From Candidatus Izemoplasmatales bacterium (lineage in GTDB: Bacteria > Bacillota_I > Bacilli_A > Izemoplasmatales > Hujiaoplasmataceae): DNA of 64,000 nt. Made by a program: the position numbers and the translations under genes. The notes under the pieces were generated by a model. It was not told the origin of the DNA. It made no database searches and was given only the letters and a program-made list of their open reading frames with translations. Shown here in pieces: positions 32,935-43,195 of this stretch (the first letter of the stretch is position 1; every line of letters begins with the position of its first letter). Where the stretch lies: contig JBFXGX010000005.1 of the NCBI GenBank assembly GCA_050177605.1, positions 1 through 64,000 of the forward strand, written 5' to 3'.

Positions 32935-33853
32935 GAGTAGAGTCCTCCGATGATTCTTCAATTAAGTAAATAGGTCGGTTGAGTAGTTGTCTTCTCATTT
33001 GATATAGCAAATAAAATATAGCGTATGTAGAAATGCCTAACACAAACACGACCACGAATAAATATAGCCCCAAGATAAATTCTGATAGTGACAAAACACT
33101 AAAAGCGAACAATAATGCATCGCTGACTAATAAAAGCACACTGGTGAGTAACACTAAGATAGGTACAATCATCAATATCGTAGAAAATTGATTCATACCA
33201 TTAAAAGCATATCTTAATAGAGATTTAAAACTCCATGAACTTTTACCATTTAGTCTTGGAATAAAATCATATTCCAAACATTTTCTTTTATAGCCGACCC
33301 ATGAGAATATCCCTTTTACAAAGCGGTAATTATCGTTTAATTTCAAGAATGCTTCCACAACGACTTTATCGAGCAATTGATAATCTTTTGCGCCATTATC
33401 GAGTGGCATATCTGAATGAGCATTATAAATTCTATAAAACCAATTTGCAAAAAAAGTTCTTAACTTTGGTTCCCCTTTTCTGGTTTTTCCTTTGGTGTAA
33501 ACAATTTTGTATCCCTCTTCATAATAGGATAACATTTCAGGAATCAATGATGGTGGTTGTTGGAGATCGCAATCAATCATAATAACGGCATCACTATCTT
33601 TTGATTCCATTAACCCCGCATGCATCGCACTTTCTTTTCCAAAATTACGAGAAAAACTAATATATCGGACTTTTTTATCGAGTTCATGTAGTTTTTTCAT
33701 TTCACCAAGGGTATCATCCTTCGATCCGTCATTTACATACAAAAGTTCAAACTCATAATTAGGATGATTGATATATTTTGAAACTTCATCATAAAAAGGT
33801 CGAACATTTTTCTCTTCATTAAAGGACGGAATGATGATCGTTATTTTCTTCAT
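32927..33853 (-). CDS. GT2 polyprenol-phosphate glycosyltransferase (GtrB/CsbB/YkoT-like)
   Basis: IPSFNEE, VNDGSKD, FSRNFGKESA, IDCDLQQPP, two C-terminal TM helices, RPIY. Confidence 0.92.
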   Translation of the reverse strand: MKKITIIIPSFNEEKNVRPFYDEVSKYINHPNYEFELLYVNDGSKDDTLGEMKKLHELDKKVRYISFSRNFGKESAMHAGLMESKDSDAVIMIDCDLQQPPSLIPEMLSYYEEGYKIVYTKGKTRKGEPKLRTFFANWFYRIYNAHSDMPLDNGAKDYQLLDKVVVEAFLKLNDNYRFVKGIFSWVGYKRKCLEYDFIPRLNGKSSWSFKSLLRYAFNGMNQFSTILMIVPILVLLTSVLLLVSDALLFAFSVLSLSEFILGLYLFVVVFVLGISTYAIFYLLYQMRRQLLNRPIYLIEESSEDSTLA

Positions 33854-36800
33854 TTAAACTCAACTCCAACTCTTTCTTTTTCTTATTTTTTTTGATTACA
33901 AAACTAGGAACAAAAATAGCTAAATAAACCAAACTACCCGCAAGAGTACCATAGATTCCATAGGTTAATCCTTTTGGATGGAAAACAAATGTAACATCAA
34001 TTGATGTTTCGCCATAAGGAATAATAATTCCTAAAAATCCACCACTTGCTGAGACTGTTTCATATTTTGTTTCAGAAGTAATCGTCCATTCTTCCGAATA
34101 AGCAACTGGTATAACAACGATTTGATCTAGCGTGCTTTCACTTATTCTATCATAATGCAAGGTGATTTTTCCACCTTCAATTGTTAAAGATTGATTATCC
34201 GCAAGATTAGAAACCGCATTTTCCTCATAAAAACTTAAATCATCATAAGCATACTTCAGACTGAATAAGAACAAATCTGATTGTTCGTACATTTTCGATG
34301 TTTTATAGATATACATCTTACTTGGTGTCTCATTGAAATAATAATACCCATTAAAACATTCTGTTTCATTGCCAAAGCTATCTTCTACAAAAACACGATC
34401 GAAATCAATGGATGAAGATAAACTAAAATATAACATACCTTCTGTGCTTGTGTAATTAATTCCACTTAAGTCATAAACCAAATATGCAGCACCATCAATT
34501 GCGCGCTCCATGCGGTACTCTAATACTTTATTGGAATTAAATAAAGTTGTTTGTTCGAAATAGATTGCGGTAGGTTCGTTCCAAAACTCACACTTTACTT
34601 GATGAGAAGTTCCGCTGGATATGGTACAACTAGATCTACTTCCATCCTCAAACTCCATAAATACTTCACCATAAGCATCAACAGTTAAATAGTGTGACTT
34701 TAGATAAATCGCACCCGTACTAAATCCAATACGAATATCATCGTTAGAATATTTGAAAAATGTTCTTACAGAAGAATCTACAACACCGGTTGTCGTTACA
34801 GCTTCTGCGTCACTTATGGTTTGATAGGACGTAATGCTTCTTAAATTAACTTCATTGGACACAGAATCATGCGTTAAGTTAATGTCGGAAAAGTCAAATC
34901 TTTCATCCTCGAAATCTAATAGAACATCAACCAACAATAACTTTTGTCCAGCTATTTTGGTATTAATCGTTGCGAATGTCTTATATTCACTGTAATTTAA
35001 ATAAGACTCATATACACTAAATGGTTCTGCTTTGACGATTTCATATAATTGAAACTGTTCATTTTCGTCAATCAAAGTATAAAAACTATCTGGAAGATAA
35101 TAATTATAGTCATGGTTCACAAGGATATATTTATAACCAAGGAATTGATTTAAATAAATCGCCTGAATTTCAAGTTTCGATTTTGATTGATATTCACTTG
35201 ATCCAAATAACAAGTAACTAATCATATTTGTTTCACTATCTGTCCACGAGTGGAAGATTTGAGTATTTGTTGGAAAAGTTGTCATTCGATTGAAATTCAA
35301 ATCTTCCACATCAAATCGACTTAAATCCACATATACGCGATAAAACTCATCATGATCTAAAACTTCATTTAAATATTCATTAATCGAGTGCATTTCATCA
35401 AATGTATCAATTTTATTTCGAATCGCAAATGGACCAGAATAAATGTAAACAATCGCGACTATAAACTCAATCCAAAAAATAGTTTTAATTACTTTGTGTT
35501 TTTTTAACCATCCAAACACTAAAATCAAAATCAAAATAAGACCAGCAACTCCCATCAGGACGGTATCTGCGGTCATTACATCGCGAGAGATATAACTTGT
35601 ATTGGCCTCAAAAGTTGCGGATAGACTACTTCGAATAATCTCCCAATAATCTGGGCTAAGATAATCTGCGGTTGATGTTAGTCTTGTAATATAATAATGC
35701 ATCACAAATCCGTCAAGCATTAACAAAATAACAATCGGAATGGTTAAAAACTTCATTTTCACTTTTTCGAAACCATATTCATTAAATACGTGAGCTAAGA
35801 TCATTGCCTCAACAAGCGGGAAGGTATTAATCCATCTTGTATATGGTGAATCGGTCGTTCCTGAGAAGACAAAAGAGAAAATAGGTAGAATAATGAGAAC
35901 TAAACTGAAAGGAATCAAGAACTTGTATACTCTAGCGACTCTTCCCTTCATAAACCAAATATAATTCATGTAAACAAATCCAACCACAGTAATAAAAAGC
36001 GAAATATGTTCTTGCCCGTAATTGTTTTCAAAGCCATAAAATCCAATTGGTTTTTGCTCGGTAAATATTTTGGCGATTACTCGCAAATAGATGGTTGGTT
36101 GGAATAACTTAAGTTCATACCCGTGAATCGTCACTAACCAATAATCAAAATATCCTTCTGGTCGATATGTATCTTCGATAATAAACAGAATGGATGGATA
36201 TAAAATAACAAGTGCCATTAAAACGCCAAGTAACAAAAGAAGTAAGAAAATCAGTCCATCTAGCACAAACTTAAAGAACTTAAAATTGGGTTCCTTAAAG
36301 TATTCCACAATGAACATAATACTGACAAATGCAAGCGCCATGTACCCTAAATAAAAGTCATAAAATACAAGTGCCATCGCAAAAAGTGGGACAATCCACC
36401 TTTTTTTATGGAAAAAGAAATGAACAACGACTAACCCTAAAGGAAGATAAAACGCTAAGGATAAAAACACAGGGAACGCCATAAAACTGACAGAGCCTCC
36501 ACTGATGAAATAAACAATCCCCATCCAAAAAATCGTTCTGTTTTTCATTCCTTTTAGGTTGAGATAATAAGCGAAAATCATCACACCGGCAAATATTTTT
36601 ATGAGTTCTGTAGCGGAATATGCAATTTCAACTGGCATAATGTACGATAAAACAAAAGTAATGAATGTAAACACATCAAGAGGAACGTAATAAATGTCGG
36701 AAAAGAACGATGCACCTAAGTAATTATTTAAATTAAACCACGATAAAGATCCATCTTTTACAGAAGTGATAAAATCATTGATAATTGCATAATATTGGAT

Positions 36801-37001
36801 AACATCATCAGAAAAGTTATTGTAAAAACTATTATTGATTAGCATAATTGCTGCATCAATTGTGAAAAGGACTAAGAAGACAAAAACCGCTAAAAAAAGA
36901 AATGTTTTCTTTCGACTACTAAAAACATCCTCTATAAACAGCTGGAATTTAGTTTGAATGTGTTTTATTCCTTCTTTTAGCTTCAATATCTTAGTTTTCA
37001 T
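33819..37001 (-). CDS. YfhO family GT-C-type polytopic membrane protein
   Basis: DD..QY, LGASF, many TM helices, large soluble loop, C-terminal IPVAYSEEW...GFLGI..P.G...V...F.PKG..G; start ATG after GAGG. Confidence 0.85.
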   Translation of the reverse strand: MKTKILKLKEGIKHIQTKFQLFIEDVFSSRKKTFLFLAVFVFLVLFTIDAAIMLINNSFYNNFSDDVIQYYAIINDFITSVKDGSLSWFNLNNYLGASFFSDIYYVPLDVFTFITFVLSYIMPVEIAYSATELIKIFAGVMIFAYYLNLKGMKNRTIFWMGIVYFISGGSVSFMAFPVFLSLAFYLPLGLVVVHFFFHKKRWIVPLFAMALVFYDFYLGYMALAFVSIMFIVEYFKEPNFKFFKFVLDGLIFLLLLLLGVLMALVILYPSILFIIEDTYRPEGYFDYWLVTIHGYELKLFQPTIYLRVIAKIFTEQKPIGFYGFENNYGQEHISLFITVVGFVYMNYIWFMKGRVARVYKFLIPFSLVLIILPIFSFVFSGTTDSPYTRWINTFPLVEAMILAHVFNEYGFEKVKMKFLTIPIVILLMLDGFVMHYYITRLTSTADYLSPDYWEIIRSSLSATFEANTSYISRDVMTADTVLMGVAGLILILILVFGWLKKHKVIKTIFWIEFIVAIVYIYSGPFAIRNKIDTFDEMHSINEYLNEVLDHDEFYRVYVDLSRFDVEDLNFNRMTTFPTNTQIFHSWTDSETNMISYLLFGSSEYQSKSKLEIQAIYLNQFLGYKYILVNHDYNYYLPDSFYTLIDENEQFQLYEIVKAEPFSVYESYLNYSEYKTFATINTKIAGQKLLLVDVLLDFEDERFDFSDINLTHDSVSNEVNLRSITSYQTISDAEAVTTTGVVDSSVRTFFKYSNDDIRIGFSTGAIYLKSHYLTVDAYGEVFMEFEDGSRSSCTISSGTSHQVKCEFWNEPTAIYFEQTTLFNSNKVLEYRMERAIDGAAYLVYDLSGINYTSTEGMLYFSLSSSIDFDRVFVEDSFGNETECFNGYYYFNETPSKMYIYKTSKMYEQSDLFLFSLKYAYDDLSFYEENAVSNLADNQSLTIEGGKITLHYDRISESTLDQIVVIPVAYSEEWTITSETKYETVSASGGFLGIIIPYGETSIDVTFVFHPKGLTYGIYGTLAGSLVYLAIFVPSFVIKKNKKKKELELSLNEENNDHHSVL

Positions 37002-37157
37002 ATACAACCTCATTAAAATATAATGGCTGTTTTATTATAACATAAAACAAGGTACGAAGAGTCGATGATTTTTTAAAAGCCGCAATTTAATAAATGAATG
37101 ATAACTAATCGCTATATAGACTAAATATCTAAAGCCAGATAACAAAATAATCGATTA

Positions 37158-37232
37158 TTCCCTTACGGTAATTTTTTAATATTATTTAATTGAAAACGCC
37201 TGAATAGGTAGTATAATATTACCGAGAGGTAA
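37158..37232 (+). promoter_or_regulatory. hipBA promoter with two palindromic operators
   Basis: TTGAAA (37190-37195), 16 nt, TATAAT (37212-37217); TTCCC-TTAC-GGTAA (37158-37171) and perfect-arm TTACC-GAGA-GGTAA (37219-37232) overlapping the RBS. Confidence 0.7.
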
Positions 37233-37236
37233 AAAA

Positions 37237-37440
37237 ATGAACGCAAAAGAATTTGGAAAGATAATTCAAGATAAAAGAAAACAAATTGGCATAACACAAA
37301 AGTATTTAGCGGCTATTTCAAATACAGGAATCCGATTTATAAGCGATTTGGAAAACGGGAAGCCGACAGTACAACTTGATAAAGCTTTTATCGTGGCAAA
37401 AACATTAAACATTGAAATTAGAATGATTAGTCATGAATAG
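37237..37440 (+). CDS. hipB: HipB-like XRE HTH antitoxin (y4mF type)
   Basis: RKQIGITQKYLA...G.RFISDLENGKPTVQL; stop overlaps hipA start by 8 nt. Confidence 0.88.
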   Translation: MNAKEFGKIIQDKRKQIGITQKYLAAISNTGIRFISDLENGKPTVQLDKAFIVAKTLNIEIRMISHE

Positions 37441-39901
37441 AGTGCTGAAAGTCTATCTATATAACACATATATCGGTGATCTTATTGAAAAAAACGGTAA
37501 AAATCTCGATTTTTTGTATTTAGATACTGCAGAATACCCCATTTCTATTGCTATGCCAATTCAACGTGAGAAATATCATAACAATATTGTAAAACCATTT
37601 TTTGAGAACTTACTGCCTGAAGGAGATTTACTTAAGGCGATTGCGAGCACATACCGTGTTTCTGTAAACAATCCTTTTTCTTTACTTGAGATGATTGGCG
37701 AGGATTGTGCTGGGGCAATCAGTCTATCCAATGAACCTATAACAGAAAAATTATCCAAACACCTTTCAAAAAACGAATTCGTTCAATTATTAACAATTAA
37801 TTCAAGTAGTGAATTATATTACCGAAAGGAAATGCGCTTGTCTTTAGCTGGAGCTCAAAATAAGACAGCAATCATTATTAACGATAATGAATACTATATT
37901 CCTAACATTACTCATCCGTCGACACATATCATAAAATATGATAATAAATTCTACTCGGACATTCTACTAAATGAATATTTTGTGACTTCATTAGCAAAAA
38001 GCGTAAAGTTGCCTACATCAGAAATTGAATTAAAACGAGTTGATAAACTTGAGTATCTCCAAATCAAAAGATATGATAGATTATGTTATGGTACAACGGT
38101 TTCGAGGATCCATCAAGAAGATTTTTGCCAGATACTAAGCATCTTATCTTCTAATAAATACCAATCTGAAGGTGGCGTAGGGCTGAATAAGATTGTAAGT
38201 GTCATTCGTGAATATTCTAGCGTTTCCGCTAGTGATATAGTTTTACTTGCAAAAGTGGTGGTCTTTAATTTGCTTGTTGGCAACTGCGATTATCATGGGA
38301 AAAACCTATCGATGCTCCACCTTGATAATAACAAGTATCAATTATCTCCGTTTTATGACTTAGTTTCAACAGTTGTCTATCCAAATATGTCAAAGAAAAT
38401 TGCAATGTCTATCAATAAAAAATATTCTATCGATGAAATATCCAAAAATGACATTATCAAGGAATTTAATTCTTGGGGTATTAAGGGAGAACAAATTTTA
38501 TCACTGATCATGACTGATTTTAAACAAATTGCAAATCAGGCAAGACAATTATCAAAGCAACCTAGTTTTTTTTCTAATACCAATATCGTCGATAAAATAA
38601 TCGAATTTTTAGAACAACAATATCATAAATTTTCCCAAAAAAGAGAAGCAGGTGTAACTATGGAAAAAGCAATTTTAATCGGTCTAGATACCGGAACAGA
38701 CGTGAATTTTAAAGAATCAATCCTGGAATTAGAGAACTTAGCAGAAGCCTGCAATGTTGACGTTATCGGAAAAACATTTCAAAAAGCAGACTCGCCAACC
38801 GCGAATTATTATGTTGGTTCAGGAAAAGTACAAGAAATCAAAGAATTAATAGCAACCCTCGACGCTAATCTCGTCATTTTTAATGATGAGCTCAGTCCAT
38901 CTCATATCCGAAATTTAGAAAAAGCTCTCGATTGTAAAGTGATTGACCGCACAATTCTTATTTTAGATATATTCGCTCGTAGAGCAAAAACCAAAGAAGC
39001 CATGCTTCAAGTTGAACTTGCACAATCTGAGTACATGCTTCCTCGTGTCGTTGGAATGTATTCATCTCTTTCAAGACAAAAAAGTGGAACTGGATCAAAA
39101 GGACCTGGTGAACAACAATTAGAACTTGATCGTCGGTTGTTAAGGTCAAGAATAACGAAACTAAAACACGAACTCAAAGATATCGTAGAAATCAGACGAA
39201 CTCAACGAGAAAAAAGAAAAAAATCTGAAGTGAAGACGGTTGCTTTGACAGGATACACAAACTCAGGCAAATCAACTTTGATGAATTCTCTACTTAATTT
39301 TTCGGTCGTCAATCAAGAAAAATATGTGTTTGAAAAGAACATGTTATTCGCAACACTAGAAACACAAACAAGAAACATTACCCTTGAGAACAATCACCAA
39401 TTCTTAATAACAGATACCGTAGGGTTTATTTCAAAACTGCCTCATCATTTGGTAGAAGCATTTAAATCCACCCTAGAAGAAATCAAAGAAGCATCGCTCA
39501 TCTTACATGTTATCGACACTGCAAACCCTTATTATTTAGATCAGATATCTGTTGTCGAACAAGTTCTTCAAGATATAGGTGTAAAAGATGTACCTATCAT
39601 TTATGTTTTTAATAAAATAGACTTACTTACTGATATTCCTGTTATAGAGTACCATCCTTATGTTTTTGTAAGTGCGCTAGAAAAACAGCATTTAAACATT
39701 TTAATTGAAGAAATTGAAAAGATTCTTTATTCTTCAAATCATCGTGTAAAAATGTTATTGCCATTTACAAAAGGTGATATCTACAATCTATTAAAAGAAA
39801 ATGCAAATATTATTGAAACTAACTACACCGATGAAGGCATTCAAGTTGATGTTGAATTAAGTGATGTGTACTATCATAAATTTGAAGAATATATTGAATA
39901 A
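37433..39901 (+). CDS. hipA: HipA Ser/Thr kinase toxin fused in frame to GTPase HflX
   Basis: aa 1-409: PFFENLLPEG, IGEDCAGA, SLAGAQNK, HIIK, RYDR, HQEDFCQ, GNCDYHGKN, LSPFYD; no stop before the HflX Met410. Confidence 0.85.
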   Translation: MNRVLKVYLYNTYIGDLIEKNGKNLDFLYLDTAEYPISIAMPIQREKYHNNIVKPFFENLLPEGDLLKAIASTYRVSVNNPFSLLEMIGEDCAGAISLSNEPITEKLSKHLSKNEFVQLLTINSSSELYYRKEMRLSLAGAQNKTAIIINDNEYYIPNITHPSTHIIKYDNKFYSDILLNEYFVTSLAKSVKLPTSEIELKRVDKLEYLQIKRYDRLCYGTTVSRIHQEDFCQILSILSSNKYQSEGGVGLNKIVSVIREYSSVSASDIVLLAKVVVFNLLVGNCDYHGKNLSMLHLDNNKYQLSPFYDLVSTVVYPNMSKKIAMSINKKYSIDEISKNDIIKEFNSWGIKGEQILSLIMTDFKQIANQARQLSKQPSFFSNTNIVDKIIEFLEQQYHKFSQKREAGVTMEKAILIGLDTGTDVNFKESILELENLAEACNVDVIGKTFQKADSPTANYYVGSGKVQEIKELIATLDANLVIFNDELSPSHIRNLEKALDCKVIDRTILILDIFARRAKTKEAMLQVELAQSEYMLPRVVGMYSSLSRQKSGTGSKGPGEQQLELDRRLLRSRITKLKHELKDIVEIRRTQREKRKKSEVKTVALTGYTNSGKSTLMNSLLNFSVVNQEKYVFEKNMLFATLETQTRNITLENNHQFLITDTVGFISKLPHHLVEAFKSTLEEIKEASLILHVIDTANPYYLDQISVVEQVLQDIGVKDVPIIYVFNKIDLLTDIPVIEYHPYVFVSALEKQHLNILIEEIEKILYSSNHRVKMLLPFTKGDIYNLLKENANIIETNYTDEGIQVDVELSDVYYHKFEEYIE
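38660..39901 (+). CDS. hflX: Ribosome-splitting GTPase HflX (internal start within the fusion ORF)
   Basis: MEKAILIG start after GCAGGTG RBS; DRTILILDIFARRA, GPGE, GYTNSGKS, FATL, DTVGF, NKID, SAL. Confidence 0.93.
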   Translation: MEKAILIGLDTGTDVNFKESILELENLAEACNVDVIGKTFQKADSPTANYYVGSGKVQEIKELIATLDANLVIFNDELSPSHIRNLEKALDCKVIDRTILILDIFARRAKTKEAMLQVELAQSEYMLPRVVGMYSSLSRQKSGTGSKGPGEQQLELDRRLLRSRITKLKHELKDIVEIRRTQREKRKKSEVKTVALTGYTNSGKSTLMNSLLNFSVVNQEKYVFEKNMLFATLETQTRNITLENNHQFLITDTVGFISKLPHHLVEAFKSTLEEIKEASLILHVIDTANPYYLDQISVVEQVLQDIGVKDVPIIYVFNKIDLLTDIPVIEYHPYVFVSALEKQHLNILIEEIEKILYSSNHRVKMLLPFTKGDIYNLLKENANIIETNYTDEGIQVDVELSDVYYHKFEEYIE

Positions 39902-39929
39902 AAAAAGTTCACAAATTGTGAACTTTTTT
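39901..39929. terminator. Bidirectional terminator between hflX and dusB
   Basis: AAAAAAGTTCACA-AAT-TGTGAACTTTTTT perfect inverted repeat. Confidence 0.85.
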
Positions 39930-40905
39930 ATTCATTTAACGCATCAAAAAAATCATCAATAATCTTTATAACTTCCTCAACTGTTTTTGCGGAAGCTAAA
40001 GACGTTTTAGCAGAAGTCGCGTTTTTTAGCCCTTTTAGATACCAAGGTCCATGGCTTCTCATTTCTAAACAAGCAATCTTTTCACCTTTTAAATCGACAA
40101 GATAACTCAGATGTTTTAACATCAGTTCTTTCACTTCTAAAGGCGTAACCGAACTAATTTCCTCTTTCTTTTCTAAGAATAAAACGAGTTCCTTTATTAG
40201 CCAAGGATTCCCTAGCAACCCTCTACCAATCATCACTGCGTCACAACCAGTTTCTTCTAACATACGAAGTGCATCTTCTTTTGTTCGAATATCTCCATTC
40301 CCAATCACAGGAATTTTTACCGTTTCTTTAATTGCTTTGATAATTGACCAATCCGCTTGTCCTGAATACATTTGTGACCTAGTTCTTGGGTGAACAGCGA
40401 TGGCACTTACACCTGCTTTTTCCAATATCTTCGCAACTTCAATCGCATTAATTGAAGAATGGTCCCAACCAGACCGTATCTTAACTGTTACAGGTTTTTT
40501 TACAGCGTTTACTACCGCACTCACCAACCTGTAAATATGCTCAGGATTTTGAAGTAAAGCTGATCCCGCACCTGCCTTTACCACTTTTTGAACCGGACAC
40601 CCCATATTGATATCAATGATGTCTGCGCTTGTATATTGATCGATGTACTTCGCAGCTTCGACCATACTGTCAATATCACTTCCAAATAATTGAAGTGCTA
40701 TTGGGTGTTCGTCTTCACCGATTTCAAGCATATCTAATGTTTTATGATTATTATGACCTAGTCCCTTATCAGAAACCATTTCAGTATAGATTAGCCCTGT
40801 CCCAAAATCTTTCAATATTTGTCTGTAAGCAATATTTGTAACACCTGCCATTGGCGCCACAACAACTTGATTTTGGATGACTAAATCCTTGATTTTCCAT
40901 TCCAT
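39928..40905 (-). CDS. dusB: tRNA-dihydrouridine synthase B
   Basis: [43 protein letters not shown]. Confidence 0.95.
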
Positions 40906-41935: not shown

Positions 41936-43195
41936 TTAAGTAATAATTGCAGTTTCAAGCGGTGTTCCTAAGTTTCCAGCATAATCTTCCGCAATGATAA
42001 TAATCATATTCGTATCATCTGCTTTTAGATTCGTTAGCAATACCCCTGTCAGACTTGTTTTCTTCGCTAAAACACCATTCACATAAACATAATATTTAGC
42101 TACTTGTTTATCGTCTGAAGCTGCTGTCCAAATTAGATATGCAGATGTACCTGTTTGGTATAAAACTCTTGGGTTTGTTGGGTTATGTGGCGCCTCACTA
42201 TCACCATAAACATAATCTTGTTGGTAAACACGTACATAATCAACTTTATAAGATTGTGGGAAGATTGAATCATCAACACCTTGTGCTCCACCCCAATTAC
42301 CGCCAATTGCGAAATTCAAGATAAGGTAGAAGTATTGGTCAAACGGCCAATCAACTGACGTATCATAAAGAACGGTTTGTGACAAATAAGGACTGTAAGA
42401 TTCACTCGCATACTCATGCCCATCAAAATACCAAGTAATACTATTTTCGTCCCATTCGATGCCATATACATGGAATTCATTTGCGACATCAATGGATGCT
42501 AGTACATTTTGTGTAATTAATGAATTTGTAGAACCTCCACGTCCATTTGAACCATTAAAACGATCCGTATGGATGGTTCCATAAACAACATTCATATCAT
42601 ATCCAACATGTTCCATAATATCGATTTCGCCGCTATCTGGCCAACCACCGTATTTTGAAGTAGAAGGCATCATCCAAAATGCAGGCCAAGTACCTCTACC
42701 AGCTGGCAACATAGCACGCATTTCAAACTTACCATATTTCCAATCAATTTTTCCGTTTGTCCAAATTTTAGCGGAGGTATAATTATACCCACTAAAAGAT
42801 TCTTTTTTACCAACAATATTTAAATAATCTCCATCAACATATAAGTTATCTGTTCTAGAAGTGTAGTATTGTAACTCATTATTACCAAATCCGCCACCGC
42901 CAGTTACAACATTCCACTTAGTTGAATCAACGCCACCAGTGTAATTAAATTCATCGCACCAAACGGGTACCCATCCATCCACAATTTCGATTGACGAACA
43001 TTCTGAAGGAATAGAATTCGATAATGCCGTTGCGGTGTTGGTGATTAATTCTCCGGACGTCGTTGTCGTAGTAGTAGTTGTATCAGATGAAGTCGTTGTG
43101 GTTGTTGTGGTTGTACTTGTGGTTACCGTCTCACAACCTACAAGCGCTATAATGGTTAATATCATGACCCCTAGCGTTACAATTTTCTTTTTCAT
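41936..43195 (-). CDS. GH16 glycoside hydrolase lipoprotein (laminarinase-like) with Thr-rich linker and Fn3-like C-terminus
   Basis: Lipobox LVGC; WCDEF, NNELQYY, GTWPAFWM, GEIDIME catalytic motif, PFDQYFYLILN.AIGGNWGG, VDYVRVY. Confidence 0.92.
   Translation of the reverse strand: MKKKIVTLGVMILTIIALVGCETVTTSTTTTTTTTSSDTTTTTTTTSGELITNTATALSNSIPSECSSIEIVDGWVPVWCDEFNYTGGVDSTKWNVVTGGGGFGNNELQYYTSRTDNLYVDGDYLNIVGKKESFSGYNYTSAKIWTNGKIDWKYGKFEMRAMLPAGRGTWPAFWMMPSTSKYGGWPDSGEIDIMEHVGYDMNVVYGTIHTDRFNGSNGRGGSTNSLITQNVLASIDVANEFHVYGIEWDENSITWYFDGHEYASESYSPYLSQTVLYDTSVDWPFDQYFYLILNFAIGGNWGGAQGVDDSIFPQSYKVDYVRVYQQDYVYGDSEAPHNPTNPRVLYQTGTSAYLIWTAASDDKQVAKYYVYVNGVLAKKTSLTGVLLTNLKADDTNMIIIIAEDYAGNLGTPLETAIIT

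Follow-up and report, generated by a model that had tools for sequence, protein, structure and literature searches.

HipA toxin kinases are usually free-standing proteins of about 400–440 amino acids (aa) with a stop codon of their own. For E. coli HipA, the reported substrates include ribosomal protein L11 in addition to GltX (PMC7180214), and the ribosome-rescue GTPase HflX is reported to be induced during the resuscitation of cells from hipA-induced persistence (PMC8407246). Extended relatives of the kinase have been described too, among them the HipL kinases, in which a C-terminal extension of ~200 aa is reported (PMC8262856). We analysed a stretch of 64,000 nucleotides (nt) from a Candidatus Izemoplasmatales bacterium (assembly GCA_050177605.1, contig JBFXGX010000005.1, positions 1 to 64,000 of the forward strand), hereafter referred to as the window, in which HipA does not take the usual free-standing form. 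Its gene has no stop codon of its own and continues in frame into hflX, giving a single reading frame that we denote hipA::hflX. Each part on its own is a typical member of the HipBA or HflX family, and their combination is new to the literature and to the sequence collections that we searched. The arguments set out below lead us to regard the fused frame as probably a recent, lineage-specific read-through accident with a two-product outcome.

The fused reading frame and its junction

The fusion is a single stop-free open reading frame (ORF) of 822 codons on the plus strand, as given by the table 11 ORF list and its translation, with the stop codon included in the coordinates (Table 1). It is laid out as a HipA kinase (residues 1–401), an eight-residue linker (402–409) and HflX (410–822). 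Pfam matches along both halves all exceed their gathering scores. The HipA half matches Couple_hipA (PF13657) at residues 5–98 (82.1 bits, cut-off 22.5) and HipA_C (PF07804) at residues 136–341 (157.7 bits, cut-off 30.5), and the HflX half matches GTP-bdg_N (PF13167) at 428–515, GTP-bdg_M (PF16360) at 517–595 and MMR_HSR1 (PF01926) at 602–728. Among NCBIfam models, the equivalog TIGR03156 (GTP_HflX) reaches 441.9 bits (cut-off 216.75) on the fusion, and TIGR03071 (couple_hipA) scores 82.9 bits.

The characteristic motifs of both proteins are in place. In the HipA half, RLSLAGAQNKT (135–145), HQEDFCQ (227–233), GNCDYHGKN (283–291) and SPFYD (305–309) lie in invariant columns of an alignment of 30 HipA sequences. 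Residues S137, K168, D286 and D309 are also invariant in these 30 sequences and align with the corresponding positions of E. coli HipA, presumably S150, K181, D309 and D332, which we take to be the P-loop serine, the ATP-binding lysine, the catalytic aspartate and the Mg-binding aspartate. Overall similarity to the E. coli HipA structures is weak (136 bits over residues 34–314), and the window HipA belongs to a clade of ~400-aa proteins from Acholeplasma- and Izemoplasma-like genomes. In the HflX half, the G motifs GYTNSGKS (607–614), DTVG (661–664) and NKID (727–730) and residue S747 are invariant or nearly invariant in alignments of 26 and 30 rows, and the best match among solved structures is the Listeria protein 8a57_D (381 bits). 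To judge from these conserved residues, both halves look enzymatically intact.

The fused HipA also shows no sign of decay at the sequence level, because a relative-rate count places it and the closest separate HipA that we identified (P0122, described below) equally far from eight outgroups, with 25 versus 27 diagnostic sites, and of 92 outgroup-invariant columns the two depart at 3, which are the same in both. Joint MAFFT alignments of the two families misplaced the halves, with HflX rows 12–20% identical to the query in one (A2) and HipA rows 17–18% identical in the other (A3). A prediction of a complex between HflX (A4) and HipA (A5) scored 0.00 against a mark of 0.32 and, having been made without controls, counts neither for nor against binding.

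A single codon, CAA (Gln402), creates the fusion. HipA relatives aligned with the window protein at 45–82% identity terminate at the column of S401 in nine of nine cases. The DNA was compared for five HipA relatives of ~50% identity, which stand in unrelated contexts and include two duplicate pairs (L025/L104 and L026/L105). The stop follows the S401 column immediately in two of the five (TAA) and after one codon in a third (TAA), and in the remaining two a TAG lies four codons beyond the end of the tblastn match. The window linker, QKREAGVT, is the former stop codon and a 21-nt spacer in translation. Kept inside the fused frame is the hflX Shine–Dalgarno (SD) sequence, AGGTG at 38650–38654, which stands 5 nt upstream of the hflX ATG at 38660.

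Since the spacer is short, divisible by three and free of stop codons, the open frame is no statistical oddity once the hipA stop is lost. A run of six A residues (38637–38642) adjoins the CAA, and with one A fewer the TAA at 38655–38657 would fall in frame, leaving 2 nt between the end of hipA and the hflX start codon. A change this small would thus be enough to turn the fusion into a pair of ordinary genes. The RNA of the junction is predicted to be unstructured (z +1.35).

Most of what the initial annotation had said about the anatomy of the locus agrees with these results. The ORF list and translation give the one uninterrupted frame that it described, the HflX that it placed at residues 410–822 is complete with intact G motifs by TIGR03156, Pfam and the alignment columns, the internal SD and ATG are retained in the sequence, and a HipB-like helix-turn-helix (HTH) gene overlaps the start of hipA by 8 nt and carries an HTH_3 match. 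The extent that it gave for HipA, residues 1–409, needs correction: all the motifs that it listed are present, but homology stops at residue 401, and residues 402–409 are translated DNA that was formerly intergenic.

Table 1. Coordinates in the window of the fused frame, its parts and the associated regulatory features.
Feature	Position	Strand	Basis
hipA::hflX, whole reading frame	37433..39901	+	ORF list, translation
HipA kinase part, residues 1–401, full length for the family	37433..38635	+	Pfam, ends of relatives, invariant catalytic columns
CAA (Gln402), sole codon creating the fusion, at the position of the relatives' hipA stop	38636..38638	+	sequence, HipA alignment
Former hipA–hflX spacer, 21 nt, now codons 403–409, with the hflX SD	38639..38659	+	sequence
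hflX part, residues 410–822, 413 aa from ATG 38660	38660..39901	+	TIGR03156, synteny, structure match
Intrinsic terminator-like hairpin after hflX, 13-bp stem and T run	39901..39929	+	terminator search
hipB antitoxin gene, 67 aa, HTH	37237..37440	+	HTH_3, 38.9 bits
hipB promoter, TTGAAA-16 nt-TATAAT	37190..37217	+	11/12 matches, best promoter-like site in 36900–40100
Operator-like inverted repeat, left arm, core CCCTTACGGTAAT	37155..37181	.	repeat search, 27-nt arms, 74% complementary
Inverted repeat, right arm (TATAATATTACCGAGAGG)	37209..37235	.	overlaps −10 and hipB SD

A hipBA cassette in front of hflX

Because it shares the synteny of its relatives and is a single copy, the window hflX is, as far as sequence comparison can tell, the orthologue of their hflX. 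In 11 of 11 loci from relatives, hflX stands head-to-head with the gene for a large membrane protein, the two starts lying ~100–130 nt apart. The dus gene lies 3' of hflX in nine of these loci (the other two end before it), and seven of the nine have hsp33 too. One match to hflX was found in the window's own genome, which is 89% complete, and this is the only copy found.

The 11 relatives also indicate what stood in front of hflX before the fusion. All of them have an extended −10 element of the TGnTATAAT type at a distance of up to ~25 nt from the hflX start codon and, after it, a GGTG(AT) SD, whose GGTG core in most of them has the same 5-nt spacing to the ATG as in the window. In the window the −10 box is absent and the 3' end of hipA occupies its place; the SD and the ATG remain. 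The gap between the membrane-protein gene and hflX holds a complete hipBA cassette.

The hipB gene of this cassette scores 64.4 bits with TIGR03070 (couple_hipB), slightly below the cut-off of 71.65, and its product is 51–67% identical to HipB of the five cassette relatives for which we had DNA. It overlaps the hipA ATG by 8 nt (ATGAATAG), and a counterpart overlap, ATGAATAA, is found in four of the five relatives; hipA has no SD of its own. The −35 and −10 elements of the hipB promoter are kept in five of five relatives. Directly 3' of the −10, the five relatives and the window share the sequence ATATTACCG(A/T)(G/A)AGG, which has an inverted partner ~50 nt upstream. The DNA that follows the hipA stop in these relatives is mutually unrelated, the two duplicate pairs excepted.

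Since the promoter and its repeats are kept in five of five unrelated contexts, the promoter and the likely HipB operators are best read as part of the cassette and not as a remnant of the hflX promoter. On these grounds we rejected the possibility that hipB has taken over the former promoter of hflX. The cassette has the cognate overlapping HTH antitoxin gene and the repeat-bearing promoter by which a type II toxin–antitoxin (TA) module is recognised, and its autoregulation is predicted. GC content puts no foreign mark on it (0.32 inside versus 0.28–0.37 around). A contig from a metagenome of another study (X5) matches the window from 37167, in the left operator-like repeat, onward and is unlike it upstream of that position; this hints at a related hipBA cassette in another context, with its left end near 37160–37167.

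Between hipA and hflX there is no plus-strand terminator-like site, and the interval 38100–38660 holds no plus-strand promoter with at least 9 of 12 matches. Because the best promoter precedes hipB, a terminator follows hflX, and neither kind of signal falls between hipA and hflX, we infer a single transcription unit, hipB-hipA::hflX, from the promoter at 37190–37217 to the terminator at 39901–39929. This promoter is probably the only one for hipB and hipA::hflX. Rfam searches of the window locus and two relatives' loci (L001, L008 and L012) gave 0 matches at gathering scores, with no riboswitch or leader RNA before hflX. Within 37048–37159 the intergenic DNA is too diverged from G001 to place the exact left edge of the insertion or to recognise what may be left of the former hflX −10 box.

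The neighbouring membrane-protein gene (33819–37013, minus strand) encodes a 1064-aa multi-pass protein that matches no Pfam family at E<=1e-5. Over the part compared, it is 57–73% identical to its counterparts in 11 of 11 relatives' loci, and in genus g4 the N-terminal region has no match to the window protein. What appeared in L008 and L012 as a 1.15-kb insert between this gene and hflX was rejected as such, being a longer N-terminus of the membrane-protein gene that runs off the end of the locus. The 130 nt before hflX in the 11 relatives (L002–L012) contain two back-to-back conserved promoter-like elements, TTATTATATCA(T/C)A by the membrane-protein gene and TGnTATAAT before hflX. The former survives in the window at ~37030–37046 and the latter does not. 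On the far side of hflX, 41936–43195 (minus strand) encodes a lipoprotein-like glycoside hydrolase of family GH16 (PF00722, 70.5 bits), whose signal peptide is followed by a long linker rich in Thr and Ser.

Origin of the fusion and competing explanations

We identified no second case of the fusion. None of 40 relatives has hipA adjoining or fused to hflX: they gave 30 hflX matches, none of which extends upstream of query residue 396, and their weak HipA-like matches (25–32% identity) lie on other contigs or at a distance. A further 160 loci came from scanning 185,579 species genomes and JGI metagenomes. Across the 172 loci, 167 carry hflX and 6 carry hipA, and both occur together only in L001, the window itself (0 of 171 others). 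A word-index search of proteins of 452–1439 aa returned HflX-type proteins only and no fusion, the best at 443 bits with 50% coverage. An exhaustive phmmer search of 1.84 billion representative proteins likewise gave no fusion among the best 150 matches, which comprise 147 HflX-type and 3 HipA-type proteins and of which the longest, at 720 and 733 aa, have HflX at the N-terminus. A protein with both halves would have ranked above every one of these single-domain matches. The domain architecture for which the initial annotation had proposed a search thus recurs in none of these sets. Among the papers listed as naming both HipA and HflX, titles and abstract openings mention no HipA–HflX fusion, and the words 'GTPase', 'fused' and 'fusion' are absent from the main text of the HipL paper (PMC8262856).

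The nearest known proteins are separate. In a collection of 5.8 billion clusters, the closest HflX is P0389 (413 aa, 96% identical), which starts MEKAI..., and the closest HipA is P0122 (403 aa, 81% identical), which ends ...YIKFS. The two come from the same source, where each occurs on one contig, and the longest contig is 5,335 nt for both. Because source and longest contig coincide, P0122 and P0389 probably lie together on one 5,335-nt contig, that of a sister lineage with hipA beside hflX and the stop in place. The initial annotation had held that close relatives with a stop before 38660 would speak against a fusion. These separate proteins of 403 and 413 aa come close to that situation. 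Between the window and the presumed sibling, HipA is 81–82% identical and HflX 96%, that is, differences of 18% versus 4%. By this comparison the TA cassette appears to have diverged, or to have been exchanged, much faster than the housekeeping hflX.

The junction DNA can be followed in several metagenomes. An independent assembly of run X1, a landfill metagenome that is the probable source sample, gave a 17.6-kb contig identical to the window over 36900–40100 (0 differences, 0 gaps) at a depth of 38. Run X2, from another sample of the same study, gave identical contigs over 36900–38534 and 38633–40100, the right one of which includes the CAA and the A run with 0 differences. The X2 gap of ~98 nt at the 3' end of hipA could reflect low depth (6–7x) or local strain variation. 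Runs X4 and X5, from other studies, cover fragments only. X4 is ~96% identical to the window and covers hipA up to 38641. An X5 contig matches hflX from 38660 and has an unlike, promoter-like sequence upstream; it carries the unfused hflX of some relative.

The series of events that we consider likely would begin with a self-contained hipBA cassette landing between the divergent membrane-protein gene and hflX. It would have replaced the hflX −10 box and spared the hflX SD and ATG. The hipA stop would have become CAA through a point mutation, TAA to CAA being the simplest, or at a recombination junction, and ribosomes on hipA would then run through 21 in-frame nt into hflX. HipB would repress the cassette promoter, from which one hipB-hipA::hflX transcript would extend to the terminator at 39901–39929. 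Translation of hipA would depend on coupling to hipB and, because hipA has no SD of its own, would yield only a little of the ~94-kDa HipA–HflX protein. Free 413-aa HflX is probably still made, in larger amounts than the fusion, by internal initiation at the kept SD and ATG; the SD spacing, which is as in the relatives, and the unstructured junction make such a start plausible. No HipA would be made without HflX at its C-terminal end. The fusion would be a recent, neutral or mildly costly by-product, and co-transcription of hflX with a TA module may be the more consequential change. N-terminal extensions of HflX and C-terminal extensions of HipA-type kinases elsewhere suggest, by analogy, that neither half need be crippled.

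Several points weigh against a simple read-through accident. The junction is bridged in X1 only, possibly the window's own source sample: X2 has no contig over 38535–38632 and its right contig begins 3 nt before the CAA, and the X4 piece (38300–38641) ends at 38641, too near the codon for its letter to count. The evidence at the junction comes from contigs, which give no proportion of CAA versus stop among cells. No RNA run is listed for the stretch, and the products are predicted from the sequence. The probable placing of P0122 and P0389 on one contig depends on the equal length of their longest contigs. Given that HipA differs by 18% and HflX by 4%, the cassettes of the two lineages may represent distinct alleles, and the junction may have a more complex history than one point mutation. 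Neutrality is assumed, and the intact catalytic residues of both halves are just as compatible with a functional fusion.

An assembly artefact or minority variant would dispense with the fusion altogether: the true majority sequence would have a stop at 38636 or an A run one shorter, with hipA and hflX ordinary neighbours. The genome is metagenome-assembled, in 66 contigs and 89% complete, the fusion hangs on one codon beside a homopolymer, and no independent sample bridges the junction, the X2 contigs breaking at 38535–38632. We nonetheless consider this explanation very unlikely in view of the 17.6-kb X1 contig, which matches without a difference or gap over 3.2 kb at a depth of 38, and of the right X2 contig, which from 38633 on carries the CAA and the A run with 0 differences. 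The stop loss could also have disarmed the toxin, if a 47-kDa C-terminal cargo inactivates or destabilises HipA and the module is on its way to decay or domestication, with hflX the only part that matters. TA cassettes are often inactivated after insertion, and hflX, with its SD and ATG retained, can do without the fusion. Against disarmament, however, HipA has neither a frameshift nor an internal stop and keeps 89 of 92 outgroup-invariant columns, the three deviating ones being shared with the unfused sibling, and hipB, the promoter and the operator elements are intact. We hold it to be scarcely probable.

The fusion could instead be adaptive, a selected bifunctional HipA–HflX in which HflX either brings the kinase to the 50S subunit (for instance to the GTPase-associated centre) or is itself subject to control by HipA in cis, so that dormancy entry is coupled to ribosome splitting and rescue. 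In favour of this, all family-invariant catalytic columns are kept in both halves and HipA shows no excess divergence. The phosphorylation of L11 besides GltX reported for E. coli HipA (PMC7180214) and the reported induction of HflX synthesis at resuscitation from hipA-induced persistence (PMC8407246) would suit such a protein, and terminal additions are tolerated, as seen in clostridial HflX of ~596 aa and in the C-terminal extension of ~200 aa reported for HipL (PMC8262856). However, no search gave a second case of the fusion, the closest known counterparts of its two halves are unfused, and the linker is a raw 21-nt spacer with an SD inside it, which has the look of a very recent accident and not of a sequence shaped by selection. 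A purposeful architecture that delivers a kinase to the ribosome or couples dormancy to rescue, as the initial annotation had suggested, sits poorly with a singleton that depends on one codon, and we think it unlikely, if less so than artefact or disarmament.

A bolder reading would join several of these elements. The hipBA operon would have captured hflX, probably in two or more sibling lineages, and HflX would be made only when the promoter controlled by HipB and HipA fires. In the window lineage every HipA would be covalently joined to HflX and, through it, attached to the 50S subunit, as a natural ribosome-targeted HipA that acts on the GTPase-associated centre or is switched by the nucleotide state of HflX, linking dormancy entry to exit. 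The two E. coli observations on L11 and on HflX induction give this idea some background by analogy. We rate this reading as low in probability as the adaptive one.

Implications and comparison with known systems

A fusion that is made and active would amount to a natural experiment on HipA tethered to a ribosome-binding GTPase, and it would show whether HflX bears a 46-kDa N-terminal load. Operon capture in turn suggests a link between derepression of the TA module and expression of a ribosome-rescue factor, which echoes the induction of HflX reported for E. coli (PMC8407246). If the locus reflects only a recent loss of a stop codon, which is the most likely case, it is a caution that a striking ORF with two domains in a metagenome-assembled genome can depend on one codon and should not on that account be taken for a new architecture.

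With E. coli HipBA (PDB 3tpd, 3dnt and 2wiu), the window module shares the Couple_hipA and HipA_C domains, an overlapping HTH antitoxin gene upstream and a promoter flanked by inverted repeats. It differs in that the window toxin has no stop and continues into HflX, and the similarity between the proteins is weak. HipL and other extended HipA-type kinases are described as likewise combining a kinase core with a large C-terminal extension (PMC8262856). According to that description, however, the HipL extension (HipS-like and HIRAN) defines a conserved family (PMC8262856), whereas the extension in the window is a housekeeping GTPase found in one lineage only.

The HflX half has the N-terminal, middle and G domains and the intact G motifs of described HflX proteins (TIGR03156; Listeria 8a57_D, E. 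coli 5ady_6), along with the flanking genes of its relatives. Unlike the usual hflX, that of the window has no −10 of its own, appears to be transcribed behind hipBA and can yield a product with 409 additional residues at its N-terminus. A parallel on this side is the clostridial long form of HflX (~596 aa, for example P0078 and P0259), which has a natural N-terminal extension of ~180 aa and matches from about residue 181. That extension is conserved across many species and has no HipA domains in precomputed Pfam lists, whereas the N-terminal extension of the window HflX is a full-length HipA kinase.

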